Assembly: GCF_030013205.1 (NCBI RefSeq)
Contig: NZ_CP122648.1
DNA: 64,000 nucleotides
Origin: Escherichia coli
GTDB lineage: Bacteria > Pseudomonadota > Gammaproteobacteria > Enterobacterales > Enterobacteriaceae
Direction: 5' to 3' (one strand)
This document shows positions 6,656-32,264 of the stretch, piece by piece. How positions within the stretch are numbered: the stretch's first letter is position 1; the number at the start of each line of letters is the position of its first letter. The position numbers were made by a program, and so were the translations under genes. Below the pieces are notes generated by a model that had not been told where the DNA came from, did no database searches, and was given only the letters and a program-made list of their open reading frames with translations.

Positions 6656-7255
6656 ATGAAGCCAGGGTGTACGCTGTTTTTTCTCTTATGTTCTGCATTA
6701 ACCGTTACAACAACGGCGCATGCACAAACACCAGATACGGCAACGACCGCGCCTTATTTGCTGGCTGGAGCCCCTACTTTCGATCTCTCCATCAGCCAGT
6801 TTCGAGAAGACTTTAACAGCCAGAATCCCAGCCTGCCACTGAACGAATTTCGTGCCATCGACAGCAGTCCCGACAAAGCCAATCTCACTCGTGCTGCCAG
6901 TAAAATTAACGAGAACTTGTATGCTTCTACAGCGCTGGAGCGCGGTACCTTAAAAATCAAAAGCATTCAAATGACCTGGCTACCCATCCAGGGGCCAGAG
7001 CAAAAAGCCGCGAAAGCGAAAGCTCAGGAATACATGGCAGCGGTGATCCGCACACTCACCCCATTAATGACCAAAACACAAAGCCAGAAAAAACTGCAGT
7101 CGCTACTAACGGCCGGGAAAAACAAACGTTATTACACCGAGACAGAAGGTGCACTGCGTTATGTTGTCGCGGACAACGGCGAAAAGGGGCTGACCTTCGC
7201 TGTTGAACCGATTAAGCTGGCGCTATCTGAATCGCTTGAAGGTTTGAATAAATGA
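6656..7255 (+). CDS. yiiQ: periplasmic protein YiiQ (DUF1454), signal peptide
   Basis: 199-aa translation with N-terminal signal peptide ending in AHA-Q. Confidence 0.78.
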   Translation: MKPGCTLFFLLCSALTVTTTAHAQTPDTATTAPYLLAGAPTFDLSISQFREDFNSQNPSLPLNEFRAIDSSPDKANLTRAASKINENLYASTALERGTLKIKSIQMTWLPIQGPEQKAAKAKAQEYMAAVIRTLTPLMTKTQSQKKLQSLLTAGKNKRYYTETEGALRYVVADNGEKGLTFAVEPIKLALSESLEGLNK

Positions 7256-7362
7256 CAAAAAGCAAAGCCTTTGTGCCGATGAATCTCTATACTGTTTCAC
7301 AGACCTGCTGCCCTGCGGGGCGGCCATCTTCCTTTATTCGCTTATAAGCGTGGAGAATTAAA

Positions 7363-8130
7363 ATGCGACATCCTTTAGTGATGGGTAACTGGAAACTGAA
7401 CGGCAGCCGCCACATGGTTCACGAGCTGGTTTCTAACCTGCGTAAAGAGCTGGCAGGTGTTGCTGGCTGTGCGGTTGCAATCGCACCACCGGAAATGTAC
7501 ATCGATATGGCGAAGCGTGAAGCTGAAGGCAGCCACATCATGCTGGGTGCGCAAAACGTGGACCTGAACCTGTCCGGCGCATTCACCGGTGAAACCTCTG
7601 CTGCTATGCTGAAAGACATCGGCGCACAGTACATCATCATCGGCCACTCTGAACGTCGTACTTACCACAAAGAGTCTGACGAACTGATCGCGAAAAAATT
7701 CGCGGTGCTGAAAGAGCAGGGTCTGACTCCGGTTCTGTGCATCGGTGAAACCGAAGCTGAAAACGAAGCGGGCAAAACTGAAGAAGTTTGTGCACGTCAG
7801 ATCGACGCGGTACTGAAAACTCAGGGTGCTGCGGCATTCGAAGGTGCGGTTATCGCTTACGAACCCGTATGGGCAATCGGTACTGGCAAATCTGCAACTC
7901 CGGCTCAGGCACAGGCTGTTCACAAATTCATCCGTGACCACATCGCTAAAGTTGACGCTAACATCGCTGAACAAGTGATCATTCAGTACGGCGGCTCTGT
8001 AAACGCGTCTAACGCTGCAGAACTGTTTGCTCAACCAGACATCGACGGCGCGCTGGTTGGCGGTGCTTCTCTGAAAGCTGACGCTTTCGCAGTGATCGTT
8101 AAAGCTGCAGAAGCGGCTAAACAGGCTTAA
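7363..8130 (+). CDS. tpiA: triose-phosphate isomerase
   Basis: 255-aa translation [15 protein letters not shown] with IGHSERR and [15 protein letters not shown] motifs. Confidence 0.96.
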
Positions 8131-8140
8131 GTCTGACAGG

Positions 8141-8161
8141 TGCCGGATTTCATATCCGGCA
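8141..8161. terminator. bidirectional hairpin terminator between tpiA and cdh
   Basis: tgccggat / atccggca inverted repeat between convergent genes. Confidence 0.45.
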
Positions 8162-8184
8162 CTTACTTTCCTTAACTCCTCGCC

Positions 8185-8940
8185 TTAACGCAAAATCTCA
8201 CACTGATGATCCTGGATTTCCTCGGCTGAAGCACGGTTAAGCGTCAGTAGATTTCGTTGTGTCGCCAGCAATACAAATGAGTTATCACTCTGCCGCACCA
8301 TCGCCAGCCCGTAGCTTCCCATATGTTCCCGCGCCTCAGGCACTTCTTCTGCAAGCATCATAAATGGGCTGCGTTGTACCAGTTCGCTTTCCGTTACCCG
8401 ACGCGCCAGGTATTCATGCCCGCGCAAACCACCTGGCAGTGGCAACCAGCGGCTGCTGATGTTCGCCAGATTGTTATCCAGCTGTTCGCGCACATCAGGA
8501 CGAATACAAGAGATATGAATATGAAAATGGTTTTGCGTACGCCCGGTGCGAGAGTTGATCGCCAAAGAAACCGCGCGATCGGGAACCGGCTGGCCGTATT
8601 TTTTGCTCATAAAATCACGCGCCTGCCAGGCCAACCAAAAGAAGTTCGGCGTTGAAGGATCGGTCAACAAAGGACTTTCAGTTCCGTTAATACGATACGT
8701 TGGCATCAACAGATATTGCAGTGGGCCATTAAGATCTTTTAAAACCACGTATCCGGCATTGGGTTTGACTTCCGCACATGGCGAAGGATTTTGATTTTGC
8801 TGCTGATTGGGCAAACATTCCTCAAGGACAATCTTACGTAATGTATCCGACTCTTCACCGGTTAATTTCCAGTAACCAATACCGGCAGCCACAACGGCGA
8901 TAACTATCATCACCAAAAAAAGAAGACCCGCTTTTTTCAT
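8185..8940 (-). CDS. cdh: CDP-diacylglycerol pyrophosphatase
   Basis: Translation from [17 protein letters not shown] matches Cdh; ORF track start 9132 is an upstream extension. Confidence 0.9.
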
Positions 8941-9046
8941 CTTTTTTTCCCTGTACCTCAAAGAGATGCAAGGGTAACGCAAAATCGTGACAAATAAAAA
9001 ACCCGGTCGCGAGAAACCACCGGGTTTGATAATTATCCTGGAGAAA

Positions 9047-10036
9047 TCAGCGTTTGCTGATCTGATCGAACGTACCGCCGTTAGCAAAATGCTCTTTTTG
9101 CGCTTTCGTCCAGCCGCCGAACTCTTCATCAATGGTGAATAACTTCAGCTTTGGAAACGCATTTTCGTACTTTTTCGCCACCTCAGCATCGCGCGGACGG
9201 TAGTAGTTTTTCGCGGCAATTTCCTGACCTTCTGGCGAGTAGAGATATTTCAGGTAGGCTTCCGCCACCTCTTTGGTGCCTTTTTTCTCGACCACTTTAT
9301 CGACCACCGACACGGTTGGCTCTGCGAGGATAGACTCACTCGGCGTAACGATTTCGAATTTATCTTTCCCCAGCTCATTCGCTGCCAGCAGAGCTTCGTT
9401 TTCCCAGGCGATCAGTACATCGCCAATCCCGCGCTCGACAAAGGTATTAGTGGAGCCGCGCGCGCCAGAATCCAGAACTTCGACGTTTTTATAAAGTGCC
9501 CGAACAAAATCCTGCGCTTTTGCCTGATCGTTGTTGTTGTGGTGCAGCGCGTAGCCCCAGGCAGCCAGGTAGTTCCAGCGCGCGCCACCAGAGCTTTTCG
9601 GATTAGGCGTGATCACCGAAACACCCAGTTTAATCAGATCGTTCCAGTCATGGATCTGCTTCGGATTGCCCTTACGCACCAGGAAAACAATGGTGGAAGT
9701 GTACGGTGCGGAGTTATCCGGCAGACGTTTGATCCACTCTTTATCAATCCGCCCGCGTTCCGCAATCGCGTCCACGTCATAGGCCAGAGCCAGCGTGACA
9801 ATATCAGCTTCAATACCGTTGATTACCGACGTCGCTTGTTTACCTGAACCACCGTGTGACTGACGAATCACCACGTTATCGCCAGTTTGCTGTTTCCAGT
9901 GGGCGCTGAATGCCTTGTTGTACTGTTCGTACAATTCGCGCGTTGGATCATATGAAACGTTAAGAAGCTGAATATCCTTTGCCATAACGCTGGTTGCCGC
10001 CAGCAAAAATGTTAACCCTACGCCCCACTTGTTCAT
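9047..10036 (-). CDS. sbp: periplasmic sulfate-binding protein
   Basis: 329-aa translation with signal peptide; matches Sbp. Confidence 0.93.
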
Positions 10037-10147
10037 CGCCCGACTCTCTTATGTTGTGTTGTGATGAGCAAAGCGTGCCAGAAGGTTAACCAAACATTAA
10101 AGAATAAAAAAAGATTGGCTATAACTTGCGGGTATATGTTGAGGGAT

Positions 10148-10170
10148 TAAAAAGGCGGAAGAAATCCGCC
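10148..10170 (-). terminator. rho-independent terminator after pfkA
   Basis: ggcgga/tccgcc hairpin with T-run on the minus strand. Confidence 0.45.
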
Positions 10171-10194
10171 TCATATTGCTGACAAAGTGCGCTT

Positions 10195-10300
10195 TATCGA
10201 TGCCGGATGCGGCGCGAACGCCTTATCCGGCCTACAAAAGTTTGCAAATTCAATAAATTGCAGAATTCACGTAGGCCTGATAAGCGAAGCGCATCAGGCA
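10195..10300. repeat. REP element cluster (BIME-like) between pfkA and sbp
   Basis: Two REP-type palindromes (gatgccggatgcggcg...ccttatccggcctac; gtaggcctgataagcgaagcgcatcaggca). Confidence 0.55.
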
Positions 10301-10355
10301 TTTTTGCTTCTGTCATCGGTTTCAGGCTAAAGGAATCTGCCTTTTTCCGAAATCA

Positions 10356-11318
10356 TTAATACAGTTTTTTCGCGCAGTCCAGCCAGTCGCCTTTGAACGG
10401 ACGCTTCATGTTTTCGATAGCGTCGATGATGTCGTGGTGAACCAGCTGTTCGTTCTGGATACCTACGCAACGACCGCCGTAACCTGCCAGCAGCAGATCG
10501 ATAGCGTAAGCGCCCATACGGGAAGCCAGAATACGGTCGTAAGGCACCGGAGAACCACCGCGCTGGATGTGGCCCAGCACAGTTGCGCGGGTTTCACGAC
10601 CGGTTTCTTTCTCGATGAAATGCGCCAGTTCGTCAACATCACACATATGTTCGGTAATCGCCACGATCGCGTGTTTTTTACCTTTCGCGATACCCGCTTT
10701 GATTTCGTTTACCAGGTCTTCACGGCTGAATTCAACTTCCGGAACTACAACGAATTCACAGCCACCGGCAATGGCCGCAGCCAAGGTCAGATCGCCACAA
10801 TAACGGCCCATCACTTCCACCACGGAAATACGCTGGTGAGAAGAAGAGGTGTCACGCAGACGGTCGATCGCTTCTACAACGGTGCTCAGCGCAGTGAAGA
10901 AACCGATAGTGTAGTCAGTGCCTTTGATGTCGTTGTCGATAGTGCCCGGCAGACCGATGCACGGGAAGCCCATTTCGGTCAGACGCATTGCACCCATGTA
11001 GGAACCGTCACCGCCGATAACCACCAGCGCGTCGATACCACGTTTTTTCAGGTTTTCGATAGCCACGGCGCGGATGTTCTCGTCGCGGAATTCCGGGAAA
11101 CGCGCAGAACCGAGGAACGTACCACCACGGTTGATCATGTCAGAAACGCTGTAACGGTCTAGCTGTACCATACGGTCTTCATACAGACCCAGATAGCCGT
11201 CATAAATGCCCATTACTTCCAGACCTTCTGTCAGCGCAGAACGAACAACCCCGCGAATTGCGGCGTTCATGCCTGGCGCATCACCGCCGCTTGTCAACAC
11301 ACCGATTTTCTTAATCAT
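10356..11318 (-). CDS. pfkA: 6-phosphofructokinase I
   Basis: Translation from [23 protein letters not shown] matches PfkA; ORF track start is a TTG extension. Confidence 0.96.
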
Positions 11319-11498
11319 GACTACCTCTGAACTTTGGAATGCAAAATGAAATCTGTTGCCGGAAGTCTTCTTGCACATCGAAGTGATCCAACGAATGTGC
11401 AAATAGTATAACAATCACTTCCTGCTGAATTGATTCAGGTCAGGCCAAATGGCGGTATTTTATACACAAAATGCGGGTCTGGCTCTCTTTTATACTGA

Positions 11499-12401
11499 TT
11501 ATGAAAGCATAGACCGTTTACCCTCCCTGGGTACGACGGAACAGGGGTCCTGATGGATAATCACATCCGATCCCGGAAAACGCCGTAAAATAGCCTGCTC
11601 TACCTGATCCGCCACCATATGTGCCTGAACCAAAGGCAGAGAGTCTTCCATTTCCAAATGAATCTGAATAAAGCGGGTCGGCCCTGACTGCCGCGTGCGA
11701 AGATCGTGAGCGCCGCTAACACCCGGCCAGGAAGTCACGATATCAATAATTTCTTGCCGTTCTTCATCAGGCAATGCGCGATCCAGTAATGACTGTACCG
11801 CCTCATATCCCATGCGTAACGCGCTATATAAAATATAGATGCCGATTCCCAATGCAAACAGAGCATCGGCGCGATGCCAGCCATACCAGGACAACCCCAG
11901 CGCCAGCAGAATTGCGCCGTTCATCATAACATCAGACTGGTAATGTAGCATATCAGCCCGCACCGCCTGGCTTTGCGTCCGGCGCACCACCCACCGCTGA
12001 AACGAGACAAGGATAATCGTACAAATTAGCGCCACAATTGTCACGATAACCCCGACGCCTGGATCTGTCATCGGTGTTGGAGATACCAGATGTTGAATAC
12101 CCGTCAAAAACAGGAATAGTGCCGAACCGGAGATAAACATACTTTGCGCCAGCGCCGCGAGGGACTCAGCTTTACCGTGACCAAACGAGTGATTATCGTC
12201 GGCAGGTTGCAGGGAATATCGCACCACCAGTAAATTCGTCAACGACGCGCCGATATCCACCAGCGAATCCACCAGCGCGGCGAGAATACTCACCGACCCG
12301 GTATACCACCATGCAAAAATTTTAATCAGCAATAGCAGTGAAGCCATCGCCGTTGCAGCAATCGCCGCCCGACTGACCAGCCGTCCATAAGATTGATTCA
12401 T
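11499..12401 (-). CDS. fieF: cation diffusion facilitator (Fe/Zn efflux) FieF/YiiP
   Basis: Translation from [21 protein letters not shown] matches FieF. Confidence 0.92.
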
Positions 12402-12479
12402 AAATACTCCCGCTATCAACTGACGCTAGTATAACGGAAGCAAATCATCTGCAATGCATTAAGCAGCAGGCAAATTGAG

Positions 12480-12526
12480 GATAAAAAAAACCCCCACATC
12501 ATGTGGGGGAAGACAGGGATGGTGTC
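12480..12526. repeat. attL: 47-bp direct repeat (copy 1), contains the hairpin cccccacat/atgtggggg
   Basis: Exact 47/47 identity with 30846-30892. Confidence 0.85.
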
Positions 12527-12574
12527 ACAAAAAAGCACCTAACCTGATGATATAAATGGATTTATATCAAGCAC

Positions 12575-12593
12575 TGTCCACATAGCGTCCACA
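12575..12593. promoter_or_regulatory. tandem TGTCCACA-type repeats (putative integrase arm-type sites) in the ogr-side arm
   Basis: tgtccacatagcgtccaca; a near-identical pair sits just after int at 30745-30763. Confidence 0.35.
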
Positions 12594-12608
12594 TCGACCA
12601 TAAATAAA

Positions 12609-12634
12609 GCCCCTCAACTGAGGGGCTATTTTTG
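12609..12634. terminator. hairpin gcccctc-aact-gaggggc with flanking T/A runs, downstream of ogr
   Basis: Perfect 7-bp stem with T-run; bidirectional in appearance. Confidence 0.45.
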
Positions 12635-12637
12635 TGA

Positions 12638-12856
12638 TCACATCCACATAATTTGCTGCCCTGACGGCAACGGGTGCGGCCTCACGGCGTGGACTTCTCC
12701 CGGCTTCACGATGTATCGCTGTACCGACTCATAAGTGATGAACGTGGCGCTGCAATTCACGTTCTGACACTGGTGATAACGCTCTTTTGTCGTGTCAGTG
12801 ATATAGCGACTTGTACGCGCATGTGCGGCATGCTGGCATAAAGGACAATGAAACAT
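12638..12856 (-). CDS. ogr: P2 Ogr-type late-gene transcription activator (zinc finger)
   Basis: Translation from MFHCPLCQHAAHARTSRYITDTTKERYHQCQNVNCSATF matches the Ogr/Delta family; Cys4 motif. Confidence 0.85.
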   Translation of the reverse strand: MFHCPLCQHAAHARTSRYITDTTKERYHQCQNVNCSATFITYESVQRYIVKPGEVHAVRPHPLPSGQQIMWM

Positions 12857-12937
12857 CGCGAGCACCTCTTCCGGTTTTGTTGATGGTGCCATTTTAGTTA
12901 ATTTACCCTTATAAAACAAACAGATAAAAACAAAACA

Positions 12938-14101
12938 TCACTCATCATCTTCTGTTTCGTTCTCCACATCAGAAAGCCTGACCTCAAGCTCTAAGGACGT
13001 CGTGAAGCCGCTATTATTCAGAAAATGTGTCACCTTAGTGATTGTCCAGTCCTGCTCGTCTATGACGCGCTTAAAGCCTGATACTTTGACCGGCGTTTCC
13101 GTGTAAATATCTGCCCGACCGGTAGCCAGACTGATGGAAAACTCCGCAACGCCCCGTTGCAGCTTATCCCACTTCGCCTGAGCGGCGCGCATGGCCTGCG
13201 CTTTCGTGGCATATACCGTGGTCAGGGCAAAAACGTTGTCAGCTTCACCGGCCATGTATTCACCTTCGCGCGCTTCCGGTACTTTTGGCGCTTTCTTCTG
13301 CGTGACTGGTTTCGCTTTCGGGTGCTCCAGTGCGCGCAGGTGTTTTTCTTTCTTTTTGCGTTTCAGTTTTACCTTCTGCTTTTGCGGCTTCGGGTCTTTG
13401 GTGTGAAGCCACTTTGCCGTTACGCCGGTATAGGCTCCACGGTCAGCAATCGCAAAATGGTGGCGGTCGCCGTCGCTGCGGGTTATGGTGACCTGCGGGA
13501 TTTTTTTACCGCTGGCCGTCACCCCCTGCCCCGCTTTGAGAAACAACAGTTTTCCCATTTTTACCGAGACCTCACCGCCGTTGCGTTCTGCAAGACGGGT
13601 CAGGAATTTCGCATCAGACTCCTGCGACTGGTCGATGTGCGGAATTTTAATTCCGGCCAGTGACGGAGCGACACTGGCTTCCAGCCTGTTACGGGAGGCT
13701 ATCGCCTCAACAATCGCACCGAGCGTGGTGTCATGCCATGAGCCTTCCCGGCGGGAATTGAGCGTCCCGCGAAAATCTGCACTCCGGGCGCGGATGGTGA
13801 CCACATCCGGTGCGCCCCGGTGTTCAACCTCATCAACGGTAAATTTCCCTTTGCATACCAGGGCAAAACCTTTCCAGCCGATATACACCGTCAGGACAGC
13901 GCCACGAACCGGCAGCCCGACCTGCCCGTCGGCATCGTTCAGTTCAATATCAAGCTGGTCAGCCTCAAAGCCCCGGTTATCCGTCAGGGTCATGCTCATC
14001 AGACGGTCGCTGATATTGCCGGTAATATCCCTGCTGTCGAGCATCAGCATGTAATCCGGCGTCAGCGTACTGCCTGCATCAAATGTCAGCGTATCCAGCA
14101 T
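12938..14101 (-). CDS. P2 gpD-like tail protein
   Basis: 387-aa translation; size and position between ogr and U as in P2. Confidence 0.82.
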   Translation of the reverse strand: MLDTLTFDAGSTLTPDYMLMLDSRDITGNISDRLMSMTLTDNRGFEADQLDIELNDADGQVGLPVRGAVLTVYIGWKGFALVCKGKFTVDEVEHRGAPDVVTIRARSADFRGTLNSRREGSWHDTTLGAIVEAIASRNRLEASVAPSLAGIKIPHIDQSQESDAKFLTRLAERNGGEVSVKMGKLLFLKAGQGVTASGKKIPQVTITRSDGDRHHFAIADRGAYTGVTAKWLHTKDPKPQKQKVKLKRKKKEKHLRALEHPKAKPVTQKKAPKVPEAREGEYMAGEADNVFALTTVYATKAQAMRAAQAKWDKLQRGVAEFSISLATGRADIYTETPVKVSGFKRVIDEQDWTITKVTHFLNNSGFTTSLELEVRLSDVENETEDDE

Positions 14102-14580
14102 TATCCCGCCCCCGTCATACCCGTGAATCTGGTCGCCATATTGCCGGCCTTACCGATGAGCGACTCCGCCTGTTTACCGATATCGCCATAAAGCGCGGCC
14201 AGTGATTCATCAACGCGGGTGAGCGACAGCGTAAAATCAATTTTTCGGGGTGTGCCATCTGCAAAGAAAATACTCCCTGTTTCACTCACCTTGCTGATGA
14301 CATACATGCCGTAAATCATTCCGGTGCCATCCAGCAACGGCCACGCCCGGCCTTCCTCTGCCATCAGTCTGAGCGTGGTCATCGTCAGCTTGCCGCCGGT
14401 CAGTTCGGGATAAAGCACACCGGCAAGCGTCATGTTTTCCTCGCCAACACCGAGAAACTGGTAGGCATCCCGTTTACCGATACGGGAATTTGACGGCCAG
14501 CGATAATCAGATTCACGCTGCATGGTCTGGTGTGGCAGCGTCTGGCGCATAAAAACAAACATACCTAACGCGAGCATCAT
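14101..14580 (-). CDS. P2 gpU-like tail protein
   Basis: 159-aa translation; position between D and T as in P2. Confidence 0.78.
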   Translation of the reverse strand: MMLALGMFVFMRQTLPHQTMQRESDYRWPSNSRIGKRDAYQFLGVGEENMTLAGVLYPELTGGKLTMTTLRLMAEEGRAWPLLDGTGMIYGMYVISKVSETGSIFFADGTPRKIDFTLSLTRVDESLAALYGDIGKQAESLIGKAGNMATRFTGMTGAG

Positions 14581-14594
14581 TTTTCGTCACCTCC

Positions 14595-24830: not shown

Positions 24831-24939
24831 TTTGCAAGCCTTTAATCTAATTCATGGAAAGGGGCATTCACTTGCCCTGTATCCAGTAAACTGACATAAC
24901 ACGATATAAGCAAGCTCCGTAATTCTTTCATGTTAATCA

Positions 24940-27258
24940 TCAATGGTCCATTGTGAATCCCGGCCACTCATCAGCGACCGGATACGTGAATTTTTTACCG
25001 TCGTAATTTACAGTCGCGCCACGCGCCAGCGCCTCAAGCTCCCATCTCTGAGGCCTGATACCGTTCTGAGCAAGGTCTACGCGGATACGGGTAATTTGCA
25101 TTCGTTCTGACCGGGTCAGTCTGGCCGATGGTGCAATTTCATGCGGTTTTAACGGGCTTCCGTTTCTTTGCTGACGGTTTGGCGTTCTCAGGTCGTATTT
25201 TAATGCGCCCCTGAGCGCCCTCACGACCTCCGGTTCATTCCATTCAATAACACCGTCATCAACCAGATTAAGCACTGCTGCGGCGTGCTCAGAAGGAGTG
25301 GGAGCCGGTAACGAAGTATCACCGCTGGTGAGCTTTCCACAGTTATTGACAGGACTCCGAGGCGCGGCGATGCCGCTTTTTAAAGTCAAAGGCTCAACGA
25401 CCGGAACTTTCGGCACAATGCGCCAGTCCGTCGTTCTGGTGATATGAATATGACGCGCGCCGAGATGCGGCGCGTAAATGCCGACCACTCTCTCGACTTC
25501 TTCCTCGTATTCGTTAACGTCATCCGACGGGCTACGGGCGACCCTGACAGTCTGACAATCGCGCGGGACATTTGCCCCGCCCTGCGCGCTGATATACAGC
25601 GCAAAATCGCCACTGTCTGCGGCGGCGCGTGCAGCCTCCACGCGTTCGTCAAATTCATCAGCAATGCTGACGCCGCGAGGCAATTTACGTAGCTCACGGT
25701 AAGCTCCCATTGTCGGCAGGCCAACCGTTTTAAATTGCGGGATGCGCCACGTTGATGCCCATGCGGTAACAGCCGCCGCAGTATCTTTCAGCGGTCTGCC
25801 GGTATCGTTATCGAGCTGACCATCCAGTGCATAGCCGTCGATATTTTTTGAAATGTATTTCGCGATATATCCCGCAGCACCGCCCCGGTTAAGGTGTTTT
25901 GCCTGAAAACGGTTTCGCGCGGCTCCTCTTTCGTCGCCATCCTCTTTGAGCGCATAGCGACGCATGATTTCGATAATCTGGTTACGCTGGCGTGGATTAC
26001 AAAAAAGCATCATATGCCAGTGCGGCGTTCCGTCGTGGTGTGGCTCGACGACTCGCAAACCGTAGACCTGTAAATCATTATCCTTGAATGCCGTGCGCAT
26101 CAGGCTCCAGATACGGCAGAGATAACGCTGCGCATCCTTTGGATTAAATGCCTCATCATTCCAGCCGTGATTAAGCTGGACGGTTTTATTTTCGCCTTTT
26201 CCGACCTGACGTGTCGGGTGATACTTTGACGGCGCGGTAAGCGTGATAAACATCCCCACATCACCCTCTGAGGCGGCGTAACGCTCAATACCGGCAATGG
26301 TGTTCATCAGCTCCATCCGGCGAATTTCAGGATTAGAAATACTGCCCATCACCTTACTGATAAGGTCGATGCGCTCGCCGGTTTCCCTGTTTTCAAGGTC
26401 ACACGATTTAAGAAATTCCAGATTTGCCTGGCGGCGCGCACGCACATCACGAATGGCGTGTTTACTGGCATAAGGAGAACGGTCTTTATTGACCTCCCCG
26501 ACAGCTATCAGTAACGCTTCATGCCAGCGCATACGCTGGCCTTTAAGCTGATGAGTCCACCACTCATCGTTAAACAGACGGGCAATTGCAGAATATGCCT
26601 GCCTCGTGGTCATCTGTCCTTTACGGTATTTTTTCCAGTAGAGAGGGGAAATATTGAAAGCACGTGCAGCACCAGCAACATGACCATAGAGGTGAGCCTG
26701 CGCCTCATCCGTAAACAGCGATTCTTTTTCGCCATGCGCATCCACCCAGGCATCGCTGAGTTCCTCATACATCATGAAAAGCTGCGATGAGATACGGGCA
26801 GCAAACTTTTTCAGCTCCTTGTCATTCATTCCCGGCAGGCGCGCATAGTGGTCACGCTCTGCCAGAAACAGTAACGACGCGTCGGTGTTCATTTCATGGC
26901 GCTGATTCACACGCTCAATGCGCGGCCATAAACGACGCTGAAAAGTGGATGTGAGGAAATAAAACCCGTGCACCGGGCTTTTATTGCGCCGGATGTAGTC
27001 ATAGCGTGAAGTAAACAGCGAGCGCAAAAAGTAAGGCAGGCGGTTAATCGTGGATAAAACACCTTGCACCTGACGCATCTCGTCACGTGTAAGGGGTCTT
27101 TCGCGCCCGACAGCCTCGCGTGGCGCGTTCCATGCATAAGCACCTGTAAACGCCTTACCGGTGCCTGCGGCAAATGCTGACGGAGGGACAAAACGTCCGG
27201 AGGCTTTAACGGCCATGTGAGCCAAAAGCCTCTGAACAACGCTTGCTGAGTTGCTCAA
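24940..27258 (-). CDS. P2 gpA-like rolling-circle replication initiator
   Basis: 772-aa ORF at the expected position downstream of orf80-83; exact start uncertain. Confidence 0.8.
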   Translation of the reverse strand: MSNSASVVQRLLAHMAVKASGRFVPPSAFAAGTGKAFTGAYAWNAPREAVGRERPLTRDEMRQVQGVLSTINRLPYFLRSLFTSRYDYIRRNKSPVHGFYFLTSTFQRRLWPRIERVNQRHEMNTDASLLFLAERDHYARLPGMNDKELKKFAARISSQLFMMYEELSDAWVDAHGEKESLFTDEAQAHLYGHVAGAARAFNISPLYWKKYRKGQMTTRQAYSAIARLFNDEWWTHQLKGQRMRWHEALLIAVGEVNKDRSPYASKHAIRDVRARRQANLEFLKSCDLENRETGERIDLISKVMGSISNPEIRRMELMNTIAGIERYAASEGDVGMFITLTAPSKYHPTRQVGKGENKTVQLNHGWNDEAFNPKDAQRYLCRIWSLMRTAFKDNDLQVYGLRVVEPHHDGTPHWHMMLFCNPRQRNQIIEIMRRYALKEDGDERGAARNRFQAKHLNRGGAAGYIAKYISKNIDGYALDGQLDNDTGRPLKDTAAAVTAWASTWRIPQFKTVGLPTMGAYRELRKLPRGVSIADEFDERVEAARAAADSGDFALYISAQGGANVPRDCQTVRVARSPSDDVNEYEEEVERVVGIYAPHLGARHIHITRTTDWRIVPKVPVVEPLTLKSGIAAPRSPVNNCGKLTSGDTSLPAPTPSEHAAAVLNLVDDGVIEWNEPEVVRALRGALKYDLRTPNRQQRNGSPLKPHEIAPSARLTRSERMQITRIRVDLAQNGIRPQRWELEALARGATVNYDGKKFTYPVADEWPGFTMDH

Positions 27259-27481
27259 CCTGCACGTTTAAATCAGCAAAAGACTTTGCGCTTCCGGTCA
27301 GAATATCGTGATGCATCAGGCCTGAAACGAGCTGGCTTAATTTCGGGTAATAACCAACCACCGCCAGCCATTCCTGACCGGCGTTTTTACCGCTTTCAGC
27401 TCTCTTTTTCTCGTGGAGAATAAACTGAAAGCTGTCACTGGTAACGACATAACGTTCGCCAATTTCAATACGAATACTCAT
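27206..27481 (-). CDS. phage early protein (P2 orf83 position)
   Basis: 91-aa ORF immediately upstream of A. Confidence 0.45.
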   Translation of the reverse strand: MSIRIEIGERYVVTSDSFQFILHEKKRAESGKNAGQEWLAVVGYYPKLSQLVSGLMHHDILTGSAKSFADLNVQVEQLSKRCSEAFGSHGR

Positions 27482-27702
27482 GCCGTTCTCCGGTAATGTT
27501 TGTTTTTTGCTTCAAAGACTGACTGACAGGAAACACAACGCGTGGCTGACGGGTAAGCCGCACGACGGGCAGCAGGTATTGGCGCGTCACACTCTTCGCA
27601 AACCAGCGCAGAAGCACCGCAATGTTTTACCCTTGCCGCGTTAATCTGGCGCTCCAGTAATTCAGCCTGTTGTTCCTGAATAAAATCTACGTTGTCCGGC
27701 AT
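27478..27702 (-). CDS. DksA/TraR-type C4 zinc-finger protein (P2 orf82 position)
   Basis: CEECDAPIPAARRAAYPSATRCVSCQ four-cysteine motif. Confidence 0.55.
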   Translation of the reverse strand: MPDNVDFIQEQQAELLERQINAARVKHCGASALVCEECDAPIPAARRAAYPSATRCVSCQSVFEAKNKHYRRTA

Positions 27703-28007
27703 TACCAGTTCCTTTTGTCGTTCAGTTTTTTAAATTCATCAGCGCAATAGCTGGCGATTTCTGTCGTTAATTTCGTCAGTTCATCCACGGAGGAAATTTG
27801 CTTGTGAAATACAGCGCGTTTAACAAGTAAATTGACCACATCAGACAGGAGGTTTAATTCACTCTGATAAATCGCGATAACAGATTCAGTTATTTCGCGT
27901 TTTTCTTTATCAAGACCAAGTTGAATAAGAGACAAATCGCCATTTTTCATAACGGCGATTTTTAAGGCATTGTTCAGTAAAACAACTGAACGAGAACAGG
28001 ACATCAA
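27702..28007 (-). CDS. phage early protein (P2 orf81 position)
   Basis: 101-aa ORF, translationally coupled to its neighbours. Confidence 0.4.
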
Positions 28008-28261
28008 AGCACCTCCCCGCGAGACAATCCGATGTTGTGAAATTTTTCCGACTCCTGACTGAGCAGCTCGACTATCTCCACGCGGGATAACTCCGCCTTT
28101 GTGATGTGGCGAATCATGGCGTCAAGATGAGAAGAAAAGCGCGTCGCTGCATCGGCCTGTGCTTCGGTTCTGGCCTGTTGCAGCAGTAATGCGTATTTAC
28201 CGCACTGATTTTCAGAAACTGTATGCATGACTTTCTCCAGGCAAAAAGAAGCCCCGCACAA
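28004..28261 (-). CDS. phage early protein (P2 orf80 position)
   Basis: 85-aa ORF in the early operon. Confidence 0.4.
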
Positions 28262-28291
28262 TTAAGTGCGTTAAAAACTCTGGTTAATTAC

Positions 28292-28798
28292 TTAATGCAG
28301 ATATTGCTCTGGTTTTACCGACGTCAGAATTGTCGGTGCATACTCAAACAGGCTGAATAATTCACGTAATGCACGGAATAAAGCATCACGCCAGTAACAT
28401 GACTCTTCATTAATTCGCCAGTATGGCTGGTTGAATTCTTTTTCAGTCAATCCGGCATGCATAAATAAAGTGCGACGCTGACTGACTGTTAAAAAACTAA
28501 TATATGCATACTCACTTGCGCCAACCTGACGGCGTTTTGAGAATGCCCCACGCAATTCATCAATTGCACAAACCAGCCGTTCACGTTCGACGTCGTTCAT
28601 TTCTTCAAAACGCATCGTTGCGTGACGCTGTTTTAACTGCGCATGAAAGCAAACCGTTAGCCGTTCGCGCTCCATCATCTGATTATAATAATCACATGTA
28701 TCCTGCCAGCGAGGAACGGCAAGATGCTTACCAATTATCCGGCGCATAGCTGCTGGCTGTTTTTCAACGAGATTGAGCGTCATCACTGTCATTTCCAT
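28292..28798 (-). CDS. P2 gpB-like replication protein (helicase-loader role)
   Basis: 168-aa ORF at the gene B position (P2 B is ~166 aa). Confidence 0.5.
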   Translation of the reverse strand: MEMTVMTLNLVEKQPAAMRRIIGKHLAVPRWQDTCDYYNQMMERERLTVCFHAQLKQRHATMRFEEMNDVERERLVCAIDELRGAFSKRRQVGASEYAYISFLTVSQRRTLFMHAGLTEKEFNQPYWRINEESCYWRDALFRALRELFSLFEYAPTILTSVKPEQYLH

Positions 28799-28986
28799 AC
28801 CCTCCGGCTTTTCAGAAAGGTCAGAGCCTTTTTTAACGGACTCTGTTTTTTGGTGCGGATAATGATTCCCTTACGCCCCTTACCGTGGGTGATGGTGAAG
28901 TCAATCGCCCTTGGGCTTTCGTTACGCAGTAACTGAGCAATACAACGCGGTTCACTCATAATCACAACCCCATCCACAAAAGCCAT
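28789..28986 (-). CDS. phage early protein (P2 orf78 position)
   Basis: 65-aa ORF between cox and B. Confidence 0.35.
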   Translation of the reverse strand: MAFVDGVVIMSEPRCIAQLLRNESPRAIDFTITHGKGRKGIIIRTKKQSPLKKALTFLKSRRVWK

Positions 28987-29234
28987 GCATCACGCTGTTC
29001 AACTGGTCGGTTATAAAACGCCTCTCGTACAGCGCGATTAAACTCTGGAATGAAAACCCACTTCTCACCGACACGAGCGTTCGGCTTACTTGGATCACGA
29101 AGCTCAATAACTGGCAATTTATTCTCTTTTACCATCTTGACTACAGCCGTTTCTGGCTTACCAAGTAACTCTGCAAACTTAACCGTATGTACCGCATCAA
29201 TCGGGTACTGAATCACATAGTCATTGACTTCCAT
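28962..29234 (-). CDS. cox: Cox-like excisionase/transcriptional regulator
   Basis: 90-aa translation with KLPVIELRDP...WVFIPEFN...AWLLWMGL; divergent from C. Confidence 0.7.
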   Translation of the reverse strand: MEVNDYVIQYPIDAVHTVKFAELLGKPETAVVKMVKENKLPVIELRDPSKPNARVGEKWVFIPEFNRAVREAFYNRPVEQRDAWLLWMGL

Positions 29235-29386
29235 TGATTAGCCCTTTTTGCTTTCGTGTTACCCTTATTAGATCCAGTCCCTTCTAGGTCGCCCCTGTCC
29301 TTTCTAGGGACTGGCTAACACACTCAAAAGGTCACCAATACACAACCTTTTGACGGGAATATAAGTCACCAATAGGTTACTGTCAA

Positions 29387-29680
29387 ATGCAGACATTCGA
29401 AAAACTGAAAGCGATTAGGAAAGCAGAAGGCTTAACACAGGCGAAATTCAGCGAAATTAGCGGGATAGCTCTAGGAACAGTCAAAAATTACGAAAGTGGG
29501 CATAAAGACCCTGGTCTCAGCATCGTTATGCGAGTCACAAATACGCCTTTATTTAAAAAATATACGCTCTGGTTAATGACTGGTGATACGTCACCACAAG
29601 CTGGTCAGATCGCGCCGGCTCTCGCACACATTGGGCAAAAACCAACAGAATCAGACCACTCCGAAAAACAGACTGGTTAA
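29387..29680 (+). CDS. P2 C-type immunity repressor (HTH)
   Basis: 97-aa translation with N-terminal HTH and the C-terminal KYTLWLMTG...GQIAPALAH segment typical of P2 C-like repressors. Confidence 0.75.
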   Translation: MQTFEKLKAIRKAEGLTQAKFSEISGIALGTVKNYESGHKDPGLSIVMRVTNTPLFKKYTLWLMTGDTSPQAGQIAPALAHIGQKPTESDHSEKQTG

Positions 29681-29749
29681 CACTCTATAAACATTATATT
29701 TTCACCATTTGTTACCAAGATGGTGAATACAGCGTCAGAGGGCTTTCTT

Positions 29750-30730
29750 ATGTCAATTAAGAAGCTCGATGATGGACGCTATGAAGTGGACATTAGACCT
29801 CGCGGTCGCGACGGAAAACGCATCCGCAGGAAATTTGAAAGAAAAGCTGAGGCTGTAGCATTTGAGCGATACACAATCGCCTACGCCAGCCAGAAAGAAT
29901 GGGCAGGTCAGCGAGCAGATCGCAGAACTTTGAGTGAGTTGCTGGACATCTGGTGGAAATATCACGGGCAAAACCACGAGCATGGAACAAAAGAGTTTAA
30001 TCATCTGCTCAAAACCATCAGCGGCATAGGTGATATACCAGTGAGCCGGATGAGCAAAAGAGCTTTGATGGATTATCGTTCCATGCGACTACGTGATGGT
30101 ATCAGTGCCGCAACGATAAACCGTGACATGTACCGATTATCCGGCATGTTCACAAAATTAATTCAATTGGATGAATTTTCCGGGCAACACCCAATTCACG
30201 GACTGCCGCCACTGGCGGAGGCCAACCCTGAAATGACGTTCCTGGAAAAAGCAGAAATCGAAAAACTGTTAAATGTTTTGGATGGTGATGACTTACTTGT
30301 CGCACTTTTATGTCTGAGCACTGGAGGAAGATGGACGGAAGTTGCCACGCTAAAACCAGCACAGATTACAAATTGCAGGGTTACCTTCCTGAAAACCAAA
30401 AACGGTAAAAAGCGAACCGTGCCGATTTCTGAGGAACTGGAGAAAAAAGTTAAAGAGGAGGCCAGCGCTAAATTATTCAAAGTTGATTATGAGAAGTTTT
30501 GCGGGATTTTACGCAGAGTGAAGCCAGATATACCACCCAATCAGGCAACCCACATCCTGCGGCATACATTCGCAAGCCATTTCATGATGAATGGGGGCAA
30601 TATAATCGCACTGCAACAGATTCTGGGACATGCGAGCATTCAGCAGACGATGGCCTATGCGCACCTTGCGCCTGACTACCTGCAAAATGCCGTCGCGCTG
30701 AATCCTCTAAAAGGCGGAGTGACGTTATAA
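29750..30730 (+). CDS. int: P2-type tyrosine integrase
   Basis: C-terminal HILRHTFASHFMMNGGNIIALQQILGHASIQQTMAYAHLAPDY (R...HxxR...Y catalytic signature); adjacent to attR. Confidence 0.88.
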   Translation: MSIKKLDDGRYEVDIRPRGRDGKRIRRKFERKAEAVAFERYTIAYASQKEWAGQRADRRTLSELLDIWWKYHGQNHEHGTKEFNHLLKTISGIGDIPVSRMSKRALMDYRSMRLRDGISAATINRDMYRLSGMFTKLIQLDEFSGQHPIHGLPPLAEANPEMTFLEKAEIEKLLNVLDGDDLLVALLCLSTGGRWTEVATLKPAQITNCRVTFLKTKNGKKRTVPISEELEKKVKEEASAKLFKVDYEKFCGILRRVKPDIPPNQATHILRHTFASHFMMNGGNIIALQQILGHASIQQTMAYAHLAPDYLQNAVALNPLKGGVTL

Positions 30731-30744
30731 ATTTCCCTTCTGAG

Positions 30745-30763
30745 TGTCCACATAGTGTCCACA
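30745..30763. promoter_or_regulatory. tandem TGTCCACA-type repeats (putative integrase arm-type sites) next to int
   Basis: tgtccacatagtgtccaca; paired with the similar element at 12575-12593. Confidence 0.35.
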
Positions 30764-30845
30764 CTCTCAGAACTTTGTAGCCCTTCCAGTCCCTTATAGG
30801 TTTTCTTAAGTTACTGTTTTCTTACGGAAACTGATGTAAGTGATT

Positions 30846-30892
30846 GATAAAAAAAACCCCCACATCATGTGGGGGAAGACAGGGATGGTGTC
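30846..30892. repeat. attR: 47-bp direct repeat (copy 2); doubles as the cpxP terminator hairpin
   Basis: Exact identity with 12480-12526; on the minus strand it reads as hairpin plus U-run just downstream of the cpxP stop. Confidence 0.85.
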
Positions 30893-30908
30893 TATGGCAA
30901 GGAAAACA
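30849..30908 (-). ncRNA. cpxQ: probable CpxQ sRNA (processed from the cpxP 3' UTR), ends at the terminator inside attR
   Basis: Position between the cpxP stop and its terminator; CpxQ is known to derive from this 3' UTR; boundaries approximate. Confidence 0.4.
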
Positions 30909-30915
30909 GGGTTTA

Positions 30916-31416
30916 CTACTGGGAACGTGAGTTGCTACTACTCAATAGCTTCAACGATGAACTTTTTTGCCATTGCGTCACGTCACGCAACTGCTCCATT
31001 CGTTGTTGATGTTTCTCATTTAAAACCGCTTGCTGCTCCGGCGTTAACAGGCGATACATTTGGTTGCGGACTTTTGCCATCTCAACCTGACGAGCAATTT
31101 GCTCATTCGCCATTTTTTCTGCCTGTGCGCGCACAGCGTTTTCATCAAAATTTTCTGCGGTGACAAGGCGATGCATTGTCTCCAGTTCGCTAACATTAAC
31201 AGGAGGCTGTTCGTGCCGGGCCTGTTGCATAAGATCTCGCATCTGCTGACGCTGATGTTCGGTTAAACTTATGCCGTCGAACATATGGCTCTGCGTACTG
31301 CGCTGCGTAAGTTCTTCACCCGGATGCCAGTTATCGCCTGAACCGACTTCAGCAGCGTGGCTTAATGAACTGACTGCCAGCGTTGAGGCCATGACGGCAG
31401 CGGTAACTATGCGCAT
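30916..31416 (-). CDS. cpxP: periplasmic stress adaptor CpxP
   Basis: Translation [21 protein letters not shown]... with [15 protein letters not shown]; divergent from cpxRA. Confidence 0.93.
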
Positions 31417-31495
31417 CATTTGCTCCCAAAATCTTTCTGTCGCGATTCAACGATAGAGAGTTTACGATTCAGGCTGCAAACATGCGTCAGGGGGT

Positions 31496-31510
31496 GTAAA
31501 ACAACGTAAA
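31496..31510. promoter_or_regulatory. CpxR box GTAAA-N5-GTAAA in the cpxP/cpxRA divergent promoter
   Basis: gtaaaacaacgtaaa matches the CpxR consensus exactly. Confidence 0.6.
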
Positions 31511-31565
31511 GTCATGGATTAGCGACGTCTGATGACGTAATTTCTGCCTCGGAGGTATTTAAACA

Positions 31566-32264
31566 ATGAATAAAATCCTGTTAGTTGATGATGACCGAGA
31601 GCTGACTTCCCTATTAAAGGAGCTGCTCGAGATGGAAGGCTTCAACGTGATTGTTGCCCACGATGGGGAACAGGCGCTTGATCTTCTGGACGACAGCATT
31701 GATTTACTTTTGCTTGATGTAATGATGCCGAAGAAAAATGGTATCGACACATTAAAAGCACTTCGCCAGACACACCAGACGCCTGTCATTATGTTGACGG
31801 CGCGCGGCAGTGAACTTGATCGCGTTCTCGGCCTTGAGCTGGGCGCAGATGACTATCTCCCGAAACCGTTTAATGATCGTGAGCTGGTGGCACGTATTCG
31901 CGCGATCCTGCGCCGTTCGCACTGGAGCGAGCAACAGCAAAACAACGACAACGGTTCACCGACACTGGAAGTTGATGCCTTAGTGCTAAATCCAGGCCGT
32001 CAGGAAGCCAGCTTCGACGGGCAAACGCTGGAGTTAACCGGTACTGAGTTTACCCTGCTCTATTTGCTGGCACAGCATCTGGGTCAGGTGGTTTCCCGTG
32101 AACATTTAAGCCAGGAAGTGCTGGGCAAACGCCTGACGCCTTTCGACCGCGCTATCGATATGCACATTTCCAACCTGCGTCGTAAACTGCCGGATCGTAA
32201 AGATGGTCACCCGTGGTTTAAAACCTTGCGTGGTCGCGGCTATCTGATGGTTTCTGCTTCATGA
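31566..32264 (+). CDS. cpxR: response regulator CpxR (OmpR family)
   Basis: 232-aa translation MNKILLVDDDRELTSLLKELLEMEGF. Confidence 0.96.
   Translation: MNKILLVDDDRELTSLLKELLEMEGFNVIVAHDGEQALDLLDDSIDLLLLDVMMPKKNGIDTLKALRQTHQTPVIMLTARGSELDRVLGLELGADDYLPKPFNDRELVARIRAILRRSHWSEQQQNNDNGSPTLEVDALVLNPGRQEASFDGQTLELTGTEFTLLYLLAQHLGQVVSREHLSQEVLGKRLTPFDRAIDMHISNLRRKLPDRKDGHPWFKTLRGRGYLMVSAS

Follow-up and report, generated by a model that had tools for sequence, protein, structure and literature searches.

What are the two pairs of short direct repeats that stand near opposite ends of a prophage in this 64,000-nucleotide stretch of Escherichia coli DNA (the window)? A preliminary description of the window had suggested that they are arm-type sites bound by the tyrosine integrase. 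Here, we propose that the pairs are the attP arm-type binding sites of a WΦ-type (P2-family) prophage, split by integration, a reading to which we assign a probability of roughly 93%. The assignment rests on homology to sites that are annotated in P2 as bound by the integrase (Int).

One pair, TGTCCACAtagCGTCCACA (also TGTCCACATAGCGTCCACA), lies at 12575-12593 and the other, TGTCCACAtagTGTCCACA (also TGTCCACATAGTGTCCACA), at 30745-30763, both exactly where the preliminary description had placed them and, as it had stated, directly repeated at 11 bp. The two pairs agree at 18/19 positions on the same strand and share the repeat unit TGTCCACA, with box starts 11 bp apart in each and all four boxes on one strand. 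Three of the four boxes are exactly TGTGGACA and the remaining one is TGTGGACG. On the ogr side, the putative P-arm sites are the boxes at 12575-12582 and 12586-12593, which read TGTGGACGctaTGTGGACA on the minus strand to which we assign them; on the int side, the putative P′-arm sites are the boxes at 30745-30752 and 30756-30763, which likewise read on the minus strand as TGTGGACActaTGTGGACA.

The pairs belong to a deleted prophage of 18.4 kb that sits between fieF and cpxP and is collinear with, and about 97-98% identical to, coliphage WΦ; WΦ 6934-19134 is missing from it (12.2 kb lost), and its cargo region has been replaced. DNA identity over int-C is 99.6-99.7% to WΦ and 99.6-100% across WΦ and its relatives. 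A perfect 47-bp att repeat, one copy at each prophage end, marks the junctions. The copy at the fieF/ogr-side junction (POB′), at 12480-12526, contains the palindrome CCCCCACATCATGTGGGGG (12491-12509) and ends 48 bp before the left repeat pair; the copy at the cpxP/int-side junction (BOP′), at 30846-30892, begins 82 bp beyond the end of the right pair. The preliminary description had set the left pair about 50 bp inside attL, and of this the distance holds while the junction name does not: in P2 usage the name attL goes to BOP′, the junction nearer int, so the ogr-side junction at the window's left is POB′, or attR. The right pair begins 14 nt past the int stop codon (30728-30730), confirming its reported position just beyond the gene.

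Could such repeats arise by chance? The exact double box, GTCCACANNNNGTCCACA, occurs at the two arm locations only when both strands of the 64-kb window are searched, has no match in 100 dinucleotide-preserving shuffles, and is expected analytically about 5e-4 times per window. The lone 8-mer is not enriched (30 matches against 46 expected with at most one mismatch), and a chance test of the double box with three mismatches allowed is uninformative (2 found against 3.8 expected). Significance belongs to the paired arrangement only and not to the single 8-mer. A full-text literature search for 'TGTGGACA' returned unrelated primer sequences only.

A close counterpart is phage P2. The published arm consensus of P2-type Ints is tgTGGaCa (PMC3448106), of which the repeat unit is the reverse complement, so that the resemblance to the P2 consensus noted in the preliminary description is borne out. 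The RefSeq P2 record (NC_001895) carries two protein_bind features for Int, a 'P arm' directly behind the ogr terminator and a 'P′ arm' at the 3′ end of int, with the sequences TGTGGTCAatgTGTGGACG and TGTGGACActgTGTGGACA. Homology to these sites, annotated as bound, supports the identification of the pairs as arm-type sites and suggests that the Int of this element binds them. P2 shares with our element the box consensus, two boxes per arm, the 11-bp register and the orientation on one strand, along with the order of ogr terminator, P arm, IHF site, core, Cox region, P′ arm and int end. In our element the P arm lies between the ogr terminator and a candidate IHF site, as in P2, and the P′ arm lies at the 3′ end of int, separated from the core by a candidate Cox region. 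P2 differs in having a 27-bp core (against 47 bp of identity here) and another host site, a P′-to-P box spacing of 174 bp rather than 196 bp, P′ boxes that overlap the coding end of int rather than following its stop, and Cox and C specificities unlike those of the WΦ type. The gene that bounds the P arm is ogr (12638-12856, minus strand), a late-gene activator matching NCBIfam PRK09678 over ORF residues 22-93 (E = 1e-52). Its terminator hairpin, also that of the late operon, lies directly before the P-arm boxes at 12599-12627 on the minus strand (AGCCCCTCagttGAGGGGCT with a T-rich tail), and the same succession of terminator and P arm is annotated in P2.

To WΦ itself the agreement is closer still: in AJ245959, the one WΦ record read across attP, all four boxes are unchanged, as are the 11-bp register, the 47-bp core and the P′-to-P spacing of 196 bp, the sequence between them differs at two positions, and WΦ attP (AY135739 / AJ245959) likewise integrates between cpxP and fieF, the difference being that the present copy is integrated and deleted. 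The arm sites are unannotated in the WΦ GenBank records. It has been reported that the P2-type group, WΦ included, carries tgTGGaCa repeats and that L-413C has the WΦ core (PMC3448106).

The cognate integrase is consistent with this assignment. The int gene (29750-30730, plus strand) encodes a P2-type heterobivalent tyrosine integrase with Pfam Int_N and Phage_integrase domains; its ORF reaches back to an ATG at 29720, and homologues begin at 29750. The protein has an overall identity of 52% to P2 Int (69% over residues 1-55 and 38% in the core-binding domain), and the P2-type N-terminal arm-binding domain is present and conserved. At the residues proposed to discriminate arm types (PMC3448106), it has the P2-type Y/D/R, whereas PSP3, our 186-type control, has W/E/Y. 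The 186-type phages are built alike, their core being flanked on either side by direct repeats and their integrase being homologous, but their arm consensus is tgccGCCActt (PMC3448106), their Int N-terminal residues differ, and their attB sites are usually tRNA genes, unlike that of this element. Pairs of GCCGCCA stand in both arms of PSP3, and tgccGCCActt repeats are absent from the arms of our element. Box sequence co-varies with Int type. The use of WΦ Int/attP as an integration tool in E. coli has been described separately (PMC12765450).

Are the boxes conserved beyond close kin, or are they a non-functional residue of recent common descent or chance, with no binding role? The latter reading draws on the fact that most close matches are 95-100% identical WΦ-like phages, among which conservation is little informative; moreover, the P-arm side sits in the ogr region, which is conserved in general, so that finding it unchanged in close relatives is weak evidence when taken alone. 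Yet the pairs, whose absence from relatives would have spoken against the arm-site interpretation, are present in WΦ, SI7, P2, 10W, P24E6b, P884B11 and vB_YpM_22. Double boxes flank attP in 6/6 P2-type phages checked, whose Ints are 52-100% identical, whose cores differ and whose flanks have diverged. They persist beside P2-type Ints sharing 39-56% identity with ours, with different flanking bases and cores, in an invariant register and orientation and anchored to the core. In a motif-first scan of IMG/VR, circular as an estimate of prevalence, 36/38 loci with a P2-type int had a pair of the same orientation between -54 and +17 bp from the int stop. A protein-first scan of IMG/VR found a pair 7-19 bp past the stop in 8/11 informative loci (11 of 80 being informative, as the int stop is where the majority of prophage contigs have been cut off) and none in 384 kb of control strands. 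Since the shuffles are equally empty and the P2 counterparts carry protein-binding annotation, we reject the absence of function as the primary explanation and regard it as scarcely credible.

The three exceptions of the protein-first scan also bear on whether the boxes are instead a signal at the 3′ end of int, an operator or RNA element for int expression, their likeness in the two arms being incidental to recombination. P2 int expression is autoregulated, which counts in favour of such a signal, as does the P′ pair overlapping or abutting the int stop in many relatives (the -54 to +17 bp range above). An equivalent pair, however, lies at the far prophage end beside ogr, 18 kb from int. In vB_YpM_22, furthermore, an insertion of about 575 bp parts the int stop from the boxes, and yet neither the distance from boxes to core nor the P′-to-P spacing of 196 bp has changed; the three exceptions are explained by the same insertion. 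On the strength of the ogr-side pair and this insertion, we reject int regulation as the primary role, which we consider extremely unlikely, though the boxes may have a secondary role in it.

If the pairs are indeed arm sites, where might the accessory proteins bind? In the interval that separates the P-arm boxes from the core, a putative IHF site at 12540-12552 on the minus strand (TATCATCAGGTTA) has one mismatch to WATCAANNNNTTR and sits in gatataaatccatttatatcatcagg, which resembles the IHF-footprint region of P2, aaataaatccttttatttcaatttattg; P884B11 has a perfect IHF match, TATCAAAAGATTA, at the equivalent position. On the P′ side, a second candidate (30837-30849, minus strand) abuts the core and carries the perfect consensus TATCAATCACTTA, being one of only three exact matches in the window, and a perfect P′-side consensus is also found in SI7 (TATCAATAACTTA) and in vB_YpM_22. 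A candidate Cox-binding region occupies the interval between the core and the P′ boxes at 30785-30824 on the plus strand, with TCCAGTCCCTTATAGGT and two GTTTTCTTA repeats (30800-30808 and 30816-30824). It agrees at 16/17 positions with TCCAGTCCCTTCTAGGT of the Pe-Pc switch region, and the P2 Cox footprint falls in the same interval (RefSeq P2 record). Overlapping 11-mers shared by the Pe-Pc region and the P′ arm number 9, where the shuffles average 0.22; this k-mer test is insensitive, having missed the known degenerate cox-boxes of P2, such that its negative result in SI7 carries no meaning. The cox gene lies at 28962-29234 on the minus strand (Pfam Phage_Cox, E = 9e-24) and, from the WΦ annotation, encodes the excision directionality factor and Pc repressor.

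Might the boxes themselves be Cox sites rather than Int sites? Directionality-factor sites such as those of 186 Apl are direct repeats one helix turn apart (PMC7498355), and the P′ boxes border the interval bound by Cox in P2. The P2 cox-box consensus, TTAAAG/CNCA, is nevertheless unrelated to TGTGGACA (PMC3936717), and it calls for at least 6 copies spaced 10-11 bp apart, whereas the arms carry two boxes each. WΦ Cox does not complement P2 cox3, so the DNA specificities of the two Cox proteins differ, and still P2 and WΦ have the same boxes. The Cox feature of P2, moreover, is confined to the core/box interval of the P′ side, while the boxes occupy the two arms alike and carry an Int-bound annotation. 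A better Cox candidate is TCCAGTCCCTTMTAGGT, common to the Pe-Pc switch and the P′ arm. Given the consensus, the specificity and the placement in both arms, we reject Cox binding by the boxes as the primary explanation and judge it very unlikely.

How would the arm sites work? In lambda, arm and core sites are bridged by a tyrosine integrase of the heterobivalent kind, aided by IHF and a directionality factor, an established mode of action that PMC9791396 supports. The lambda arm sites (P1, P2 and P′1-P′3) share this working principle with our element but have an unrelated arm consensus, differ in number and orientation, and are served by an only distantly related integrase, such that the likeness is a resemblance in working and not family membership. 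By analogy with P2 and lambda, the circular phage DNA would run from the ogr terminator through the P-arm boxes, IHF site, 47-bp core, Cox region and P′-arm boxes to the int stop, and integration would place the P and P′ arms at opposite prophage ends. The small N-terminal domain of Int would bind the boxes, its central and catalytic domains the core, with two Int protomers on each arm set on the same helix face by the 11-bp register. Bending by IHF would then allow one Int molecule to bridge arm and core, building an intasome for recombination between attP and attB. For excision, the fieF-side P arm and the cpxP-side P′ arm would be joined with Int, IHF and Cox.

The recombination module of the deleted prophage is complete (int, cox, both arms and both core copies), and the prophage may therefore still excise or be mobilised; equally, after the loss of 12.2 kb, it may no longer use its arm sites. 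As the boxes match sites already mapped in P2, the finding is an ordinary one: the arm boxes themselves are already known, hold nothing novel, and have little significance beyond correct annotation. What is supplied are exact arm-box coordinates, where WΦ-type GenBank records have no such annotation, and a signature, namely two TGTGGACA-like boxes 11 bp apart, occurring twice at 170-280 bp from each other, by which P2-type attP sites and prophage ends can be located cheaply and specifically.

A side observation concerns the host gene at the cpxP-side junction. From K-12 annotation and sequence, the 47-bp WΦ-type core falls within cpxQ, a host sRNA gene, whose 3′ 43 nt it spans, terminator included, and the cpxP/int-side core copy coincides with the 3′ part of this gene. 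A search of 12300-31600 at Rfam gathering thresholds gave no match, and a literature search on CpxQ together with prophage or attB retrieved no paper containing CpxQ. The phage-side perfect IHF consensus abuts this cpxQ-internal core; therefore, WΦ-type phages may target an sRNA gene as others target tRNA or tmRNA genes, and integration and excision might subtly alter CpxQ-dependent envelope-stress regulation, a suggestion that we hold to be doubtful. The core hairpin loop differs from K-12 by 1 nt, and, of complete E. coli genomes, about 11% carry a WΦ-type phage between cpxP and fieF.

Here, we propose that the paired 8-bp repeats in the two arms of the prophage are the arm-type sites of its tyrosine integrase, a reading supported by P2 homology and by the persistence of the boxes where the flanking sequence has diverged. 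As such they would be an already known feature, a WΦ-type attP with the arm-site layout standard for P2-type phages. The P-arm (ogr-side) pair, TGTCCACATAGCGTCCACA, and the P′-arm (int-side) pair, TGTCCACATAGTGTCCACA, lie on the same strand at 12575-12593 and 30745-30763, exactly where the preliminary description had placed them. They are identical at 18 of 19 positions, and each consists, as that description also had it, of two direct repeats, the box starts being 11 bp apart. The att core is a perfect 47-bp direct repeat, GATAAAAAAAACCCCCACATCATGTGGGGGAAGACAGGGATGGTGTC (12480-12526 and 30846-30892). The P-arm pair starts 48 bp inward of its left copy. The P′-arm pair starts 14 nt past the int stop codon (30728-30730), and 82 bp separate its end from the right copy. 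When attP was rebuilt in silico by placing one core copy between the int-side and ogr-side arms, TGTGGACGctaTGTGGACA immediately followed the hairpin of the ogr terminator and TGTGGACActaTGTGGACA adjoined the int stop. Naming the left junction attL is correct as a position in the window but not in P2 nomenclature, where the P arm stands at the fieF-side junction (POB′, attR) and the P′ arm at the cpxP-side junction (BOP′, attL).

The paired arrangement is unusual, though the single box is not. With at most one mismatch, the 8-mer has 30 matches in the window against 46 expected, whereas the exact double box GTCCACANNNNGTCCACA occurs only at the two arm sites and in none of 100 dinucleotide-preserving shuffles. 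A search tolerating 3 mismatches did not set the double box apart (2 matches against 3.8 expected).

The P2 record (RefSeq NC_001895) gives, in order, the ogr terminator and protein_bind features for “Int, P arm”, “IHF”, “Int, attP core”, “Cox”, and “Int, P′ arm”, the last overlapping the end of int. The P2 sequence reads TGTGGTCAatgTGTGGACG at the P arm and TGTGGACActgTGTGGACA at the P′ arm, sharing with the element both the 11-bp register and the orientation of the boxes. Arm-type repeats have been described in all P2-like phages examined except one, and fall into two groups with the P2 consensus tgTGGaCa and the 186 consensus tgccGCCActt (Nilsson et al. 2011, PMC3448106). Because TGTCCACA is the reverse complement of TGTGGACA, the resemblance to the P2 Int arm consensus that the preliminary description noted is confirmed. 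The comparison with 186 sites, also suggested in the preliminary description, gave a different picture: the 186-type control phage PSP3 (Int 38% identical) lacks the element's boxes and instead has GCCGCCA-type pairs in both arms.

Might the boxes be a non-functional relic of shared ancestry? We compared attP of WΦ, SI7 (Int 84% identical), P2 and 10W (52%), P24E6b (55%), and P884B11 (54%). Absence from related att regions, which would have counted against the integrase proposal, was not seen: every P2-type phage compared has two boxes per arm, 11 bp apart and in a single orientation, while the cores and the bases immediately around the boxes differ. Shared ancestry without function is contradicted by this retention of the boxes, at Int identities as low as ~40-50%, where their flanks have diverged. 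Variant boxes occur in P884B11 (CGTGGACA), in the P′ arm of P24E6b (TATGGACG/TATGGACA), and in two loci whose Int is 67% identical (TGTCTACAtctTGTCTACA; L204 and L211, ~2488-2506), and these may reflect co-variation of the box with the N-terminal domain of diverged Ints. The distance from P′ to P boxes is 174 bp in P2, 10W, and P24E6b, 196 bp in the element, WΦ, and SI7, and 276 bp in P884B11. The Int proteins follow a similar pattern: relative to P2 Int, the element's Int is 69% identical over its first 55 residues (35 of the first 42), 38% in the core-binding domain, and 55% in the catalytic domain, as would be expected if arm specificity, but not core specificity, were common with P2. Three Int residues proposed as arm-type discriminators (Nilsson et al., PMC3448106) are Y, D, and R in both the element's Int and P2, and W, E, and Y in PSP3.

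The exact double box was found at no fewer than 120 loci in IMG/VR. Among the matches listed, 38 have a P2-type Int (37-98% identical to that of the element), and in 36 of these the pair lies -54 to +17 bp from the int stop, oriented as in the element. Because the double-box scan selects on the motif, a second set of loci was gathered by Int protein homology. Most of these contigs stop at the int stop; in 8 of the 11 with downstream DNA the pair lies 7-19 bp past it, and 384 kb of control strands from other parts of these loci contained no box pair. The three exceptions (L171, L174, L175) carry the same insertion as Yersinia phage vB_YpM_22, where ~575 bp (L212, 2135-2710), including a 78-aa ORF annotated on the opposite strand (2135-2371), separates the int stop from the P′ boxes. 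The boxes are therefore part of attP and placed relative to the core, not to int, since the insertion leaves the box-to-core distance, as well as the 196-bp box-to-box spacing, unchanged. A purely int-regulatory role is contradicted by this same separation from int and by the equivalent pair adjoining ogr. Also among the matches listed are four loci with two exact or near-exact TGTGGACA pairs 230-290 bp apart (L010, 2990/3249; L051, 6980/7273; L079, 9002/9233; L086, 1663/1910), in which tblastn detected no P2-type Int. One pair in each of the four is adjoined by a tyrosine integrase of another kind (362-428 aa; one has an Arm-DNA-bind_3 domain). This box motif may also serve other integrase lineages.

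The remaining attP sites are candidates. A putative IHF site with one mismatch, TATCATCAGGTTA (12540-12552, minus strand), falls in sequence similar to the P2 IHF footprint, and P884B11 has a perfect match at the equivalent place. P2 is annotated with an IHF site on the P side only, whereas the element also has, as sequence only, a perfect P′-side consensus, TATCAATCACTTA (30837-30849, minus strand), which overlaps the core boundary, is one of only 3 exact IHF matches in the 64-kb window, and is kept in SI7 (TATCAATAACTTA) and vB_YpM_22. A candidate Cox region in the P′ arm (30785-30824) comprises TCCAGTCCCTTATAGGT (30785-30801) followed by two GTTTTCTTA repeats. TCCAGTCCCTTATAGGT matches TCCAGTCCCTTCTAGGT in the Pe-Pc switch region at 16 of 17 positions, and a second, imperfect copy, TGTCCTTTCTAGG, lies 20 bp further on in that region (both copies, 29273-29308). 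For WΦ Cox, Ahlgren-Berg and colleagues reportedly described two repeats in 2009, one of 12 nt in the WΦ Pe-Pc region and one of 9 bp in attP. It is reasonable to regard TCCAGTCCCTTATAGGT and the adjoining GTTTTCTTA repeats as candidate WΦ-type Cox sites. They are distinct from the C operators GTCACCAATA (~29332 and ~29365), known as TATTGGTGAC from oligonucleotides (PMC1904263). That Cox instead binds the boxes themselves is contradicted on three counts: they are common to P2 and WΦ, two phages whose Cox proteins cannot replace one another, they are unrelated to the P2 cox-box consensus, and they are present in both arms.

In light of P2 homology and the general heterobivalent tyrosine integrase model, we infer that Int binds the boxes and that recombination needs them. 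All four boxes would be occupied by the Int N-terminal domain, with a pair of protomers on the same helix face of each arm, and the remainder of Int would contact the core; IHF would bend the P arm so that Int can link it to the core. From a position between core and P′ boxes, Cox would direct excision and inhibit integration, as has been described (PMC3936717; PMC7581858). In E. coli, WΦ Int/attP is a working integration system (PMC12765450).

The most noteworthy by-product of the arm-site analysis is the overlap of the core with cpxQ. In K-12, the 3′ 43 nt of this sRNA gene (b4716), with its terminator hairpin, form the first 43 nt of the core, which extends 4 nt further (L131, 746-792); the hairpin loop differs by one base from both core copies here (C in K-12, A here). 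The WΦ-type attB therefore falls within an sRNA gene; integration regenerates an intact CpxQ 3′ end adjoining cpxP, leaving a second terminator copy upstream of fieF. An Rfam search of the att core/cpxQ region gave no match.

The prophage has P2-family gene order (ogr, D, U, part of T; M, N, O, P, Q; cargo; A, B, cox, C, int) across the 18.4 kb between the two core copies. Its host neighbours are fieF (11499-12419) and cpxP (30916-31419), and the fieF-att-ogr junction is present in 605 of 5426 complete E. coli genomes. Across int-C, the element matches coliphage WΦ and the related fiAA91-ss, phage 899, and STYP1 at 99.6-100% identity; on the ogr side it is 97-98% identical to WΦ-like phages. 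By blastn the element aligns collinearly with the complete WΦ genome (97-98% identity) except at two places: a 12.2-kb deletion removes WΦ 6934-19134, from holin gene Y into tail-length gene T, and the cargo segment (22860-24950) is replaced. Lysis, baseplate, fibre, sheath, and tube genes are missing, which leaves the prophage defective in lysis and tail formation, with its recombination module intact. At the deletion junction (15926-15941) the flanking alignments share 16 bp, which suggests microhomology. The cargo, unmatched in WΦ, which has mth, orf96, and orf98 there, lies between cos/Q and gene A, a position known in P2-like phages as a variable or defence-gene hotspot. It encodes, on the minus strand, a 443-aa protein with an HNH_2 nuclease domain and weak PADLOC HNH matches (23499-24830) and a 139-aa protein without a family match (22988-23407). 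The int ORF is open up to an ATG at 29720 (336 aa); its true start is likely the Met at 29750 (326 aa), where the alignments to P2 Int and to the annotated WΦ Int begin.
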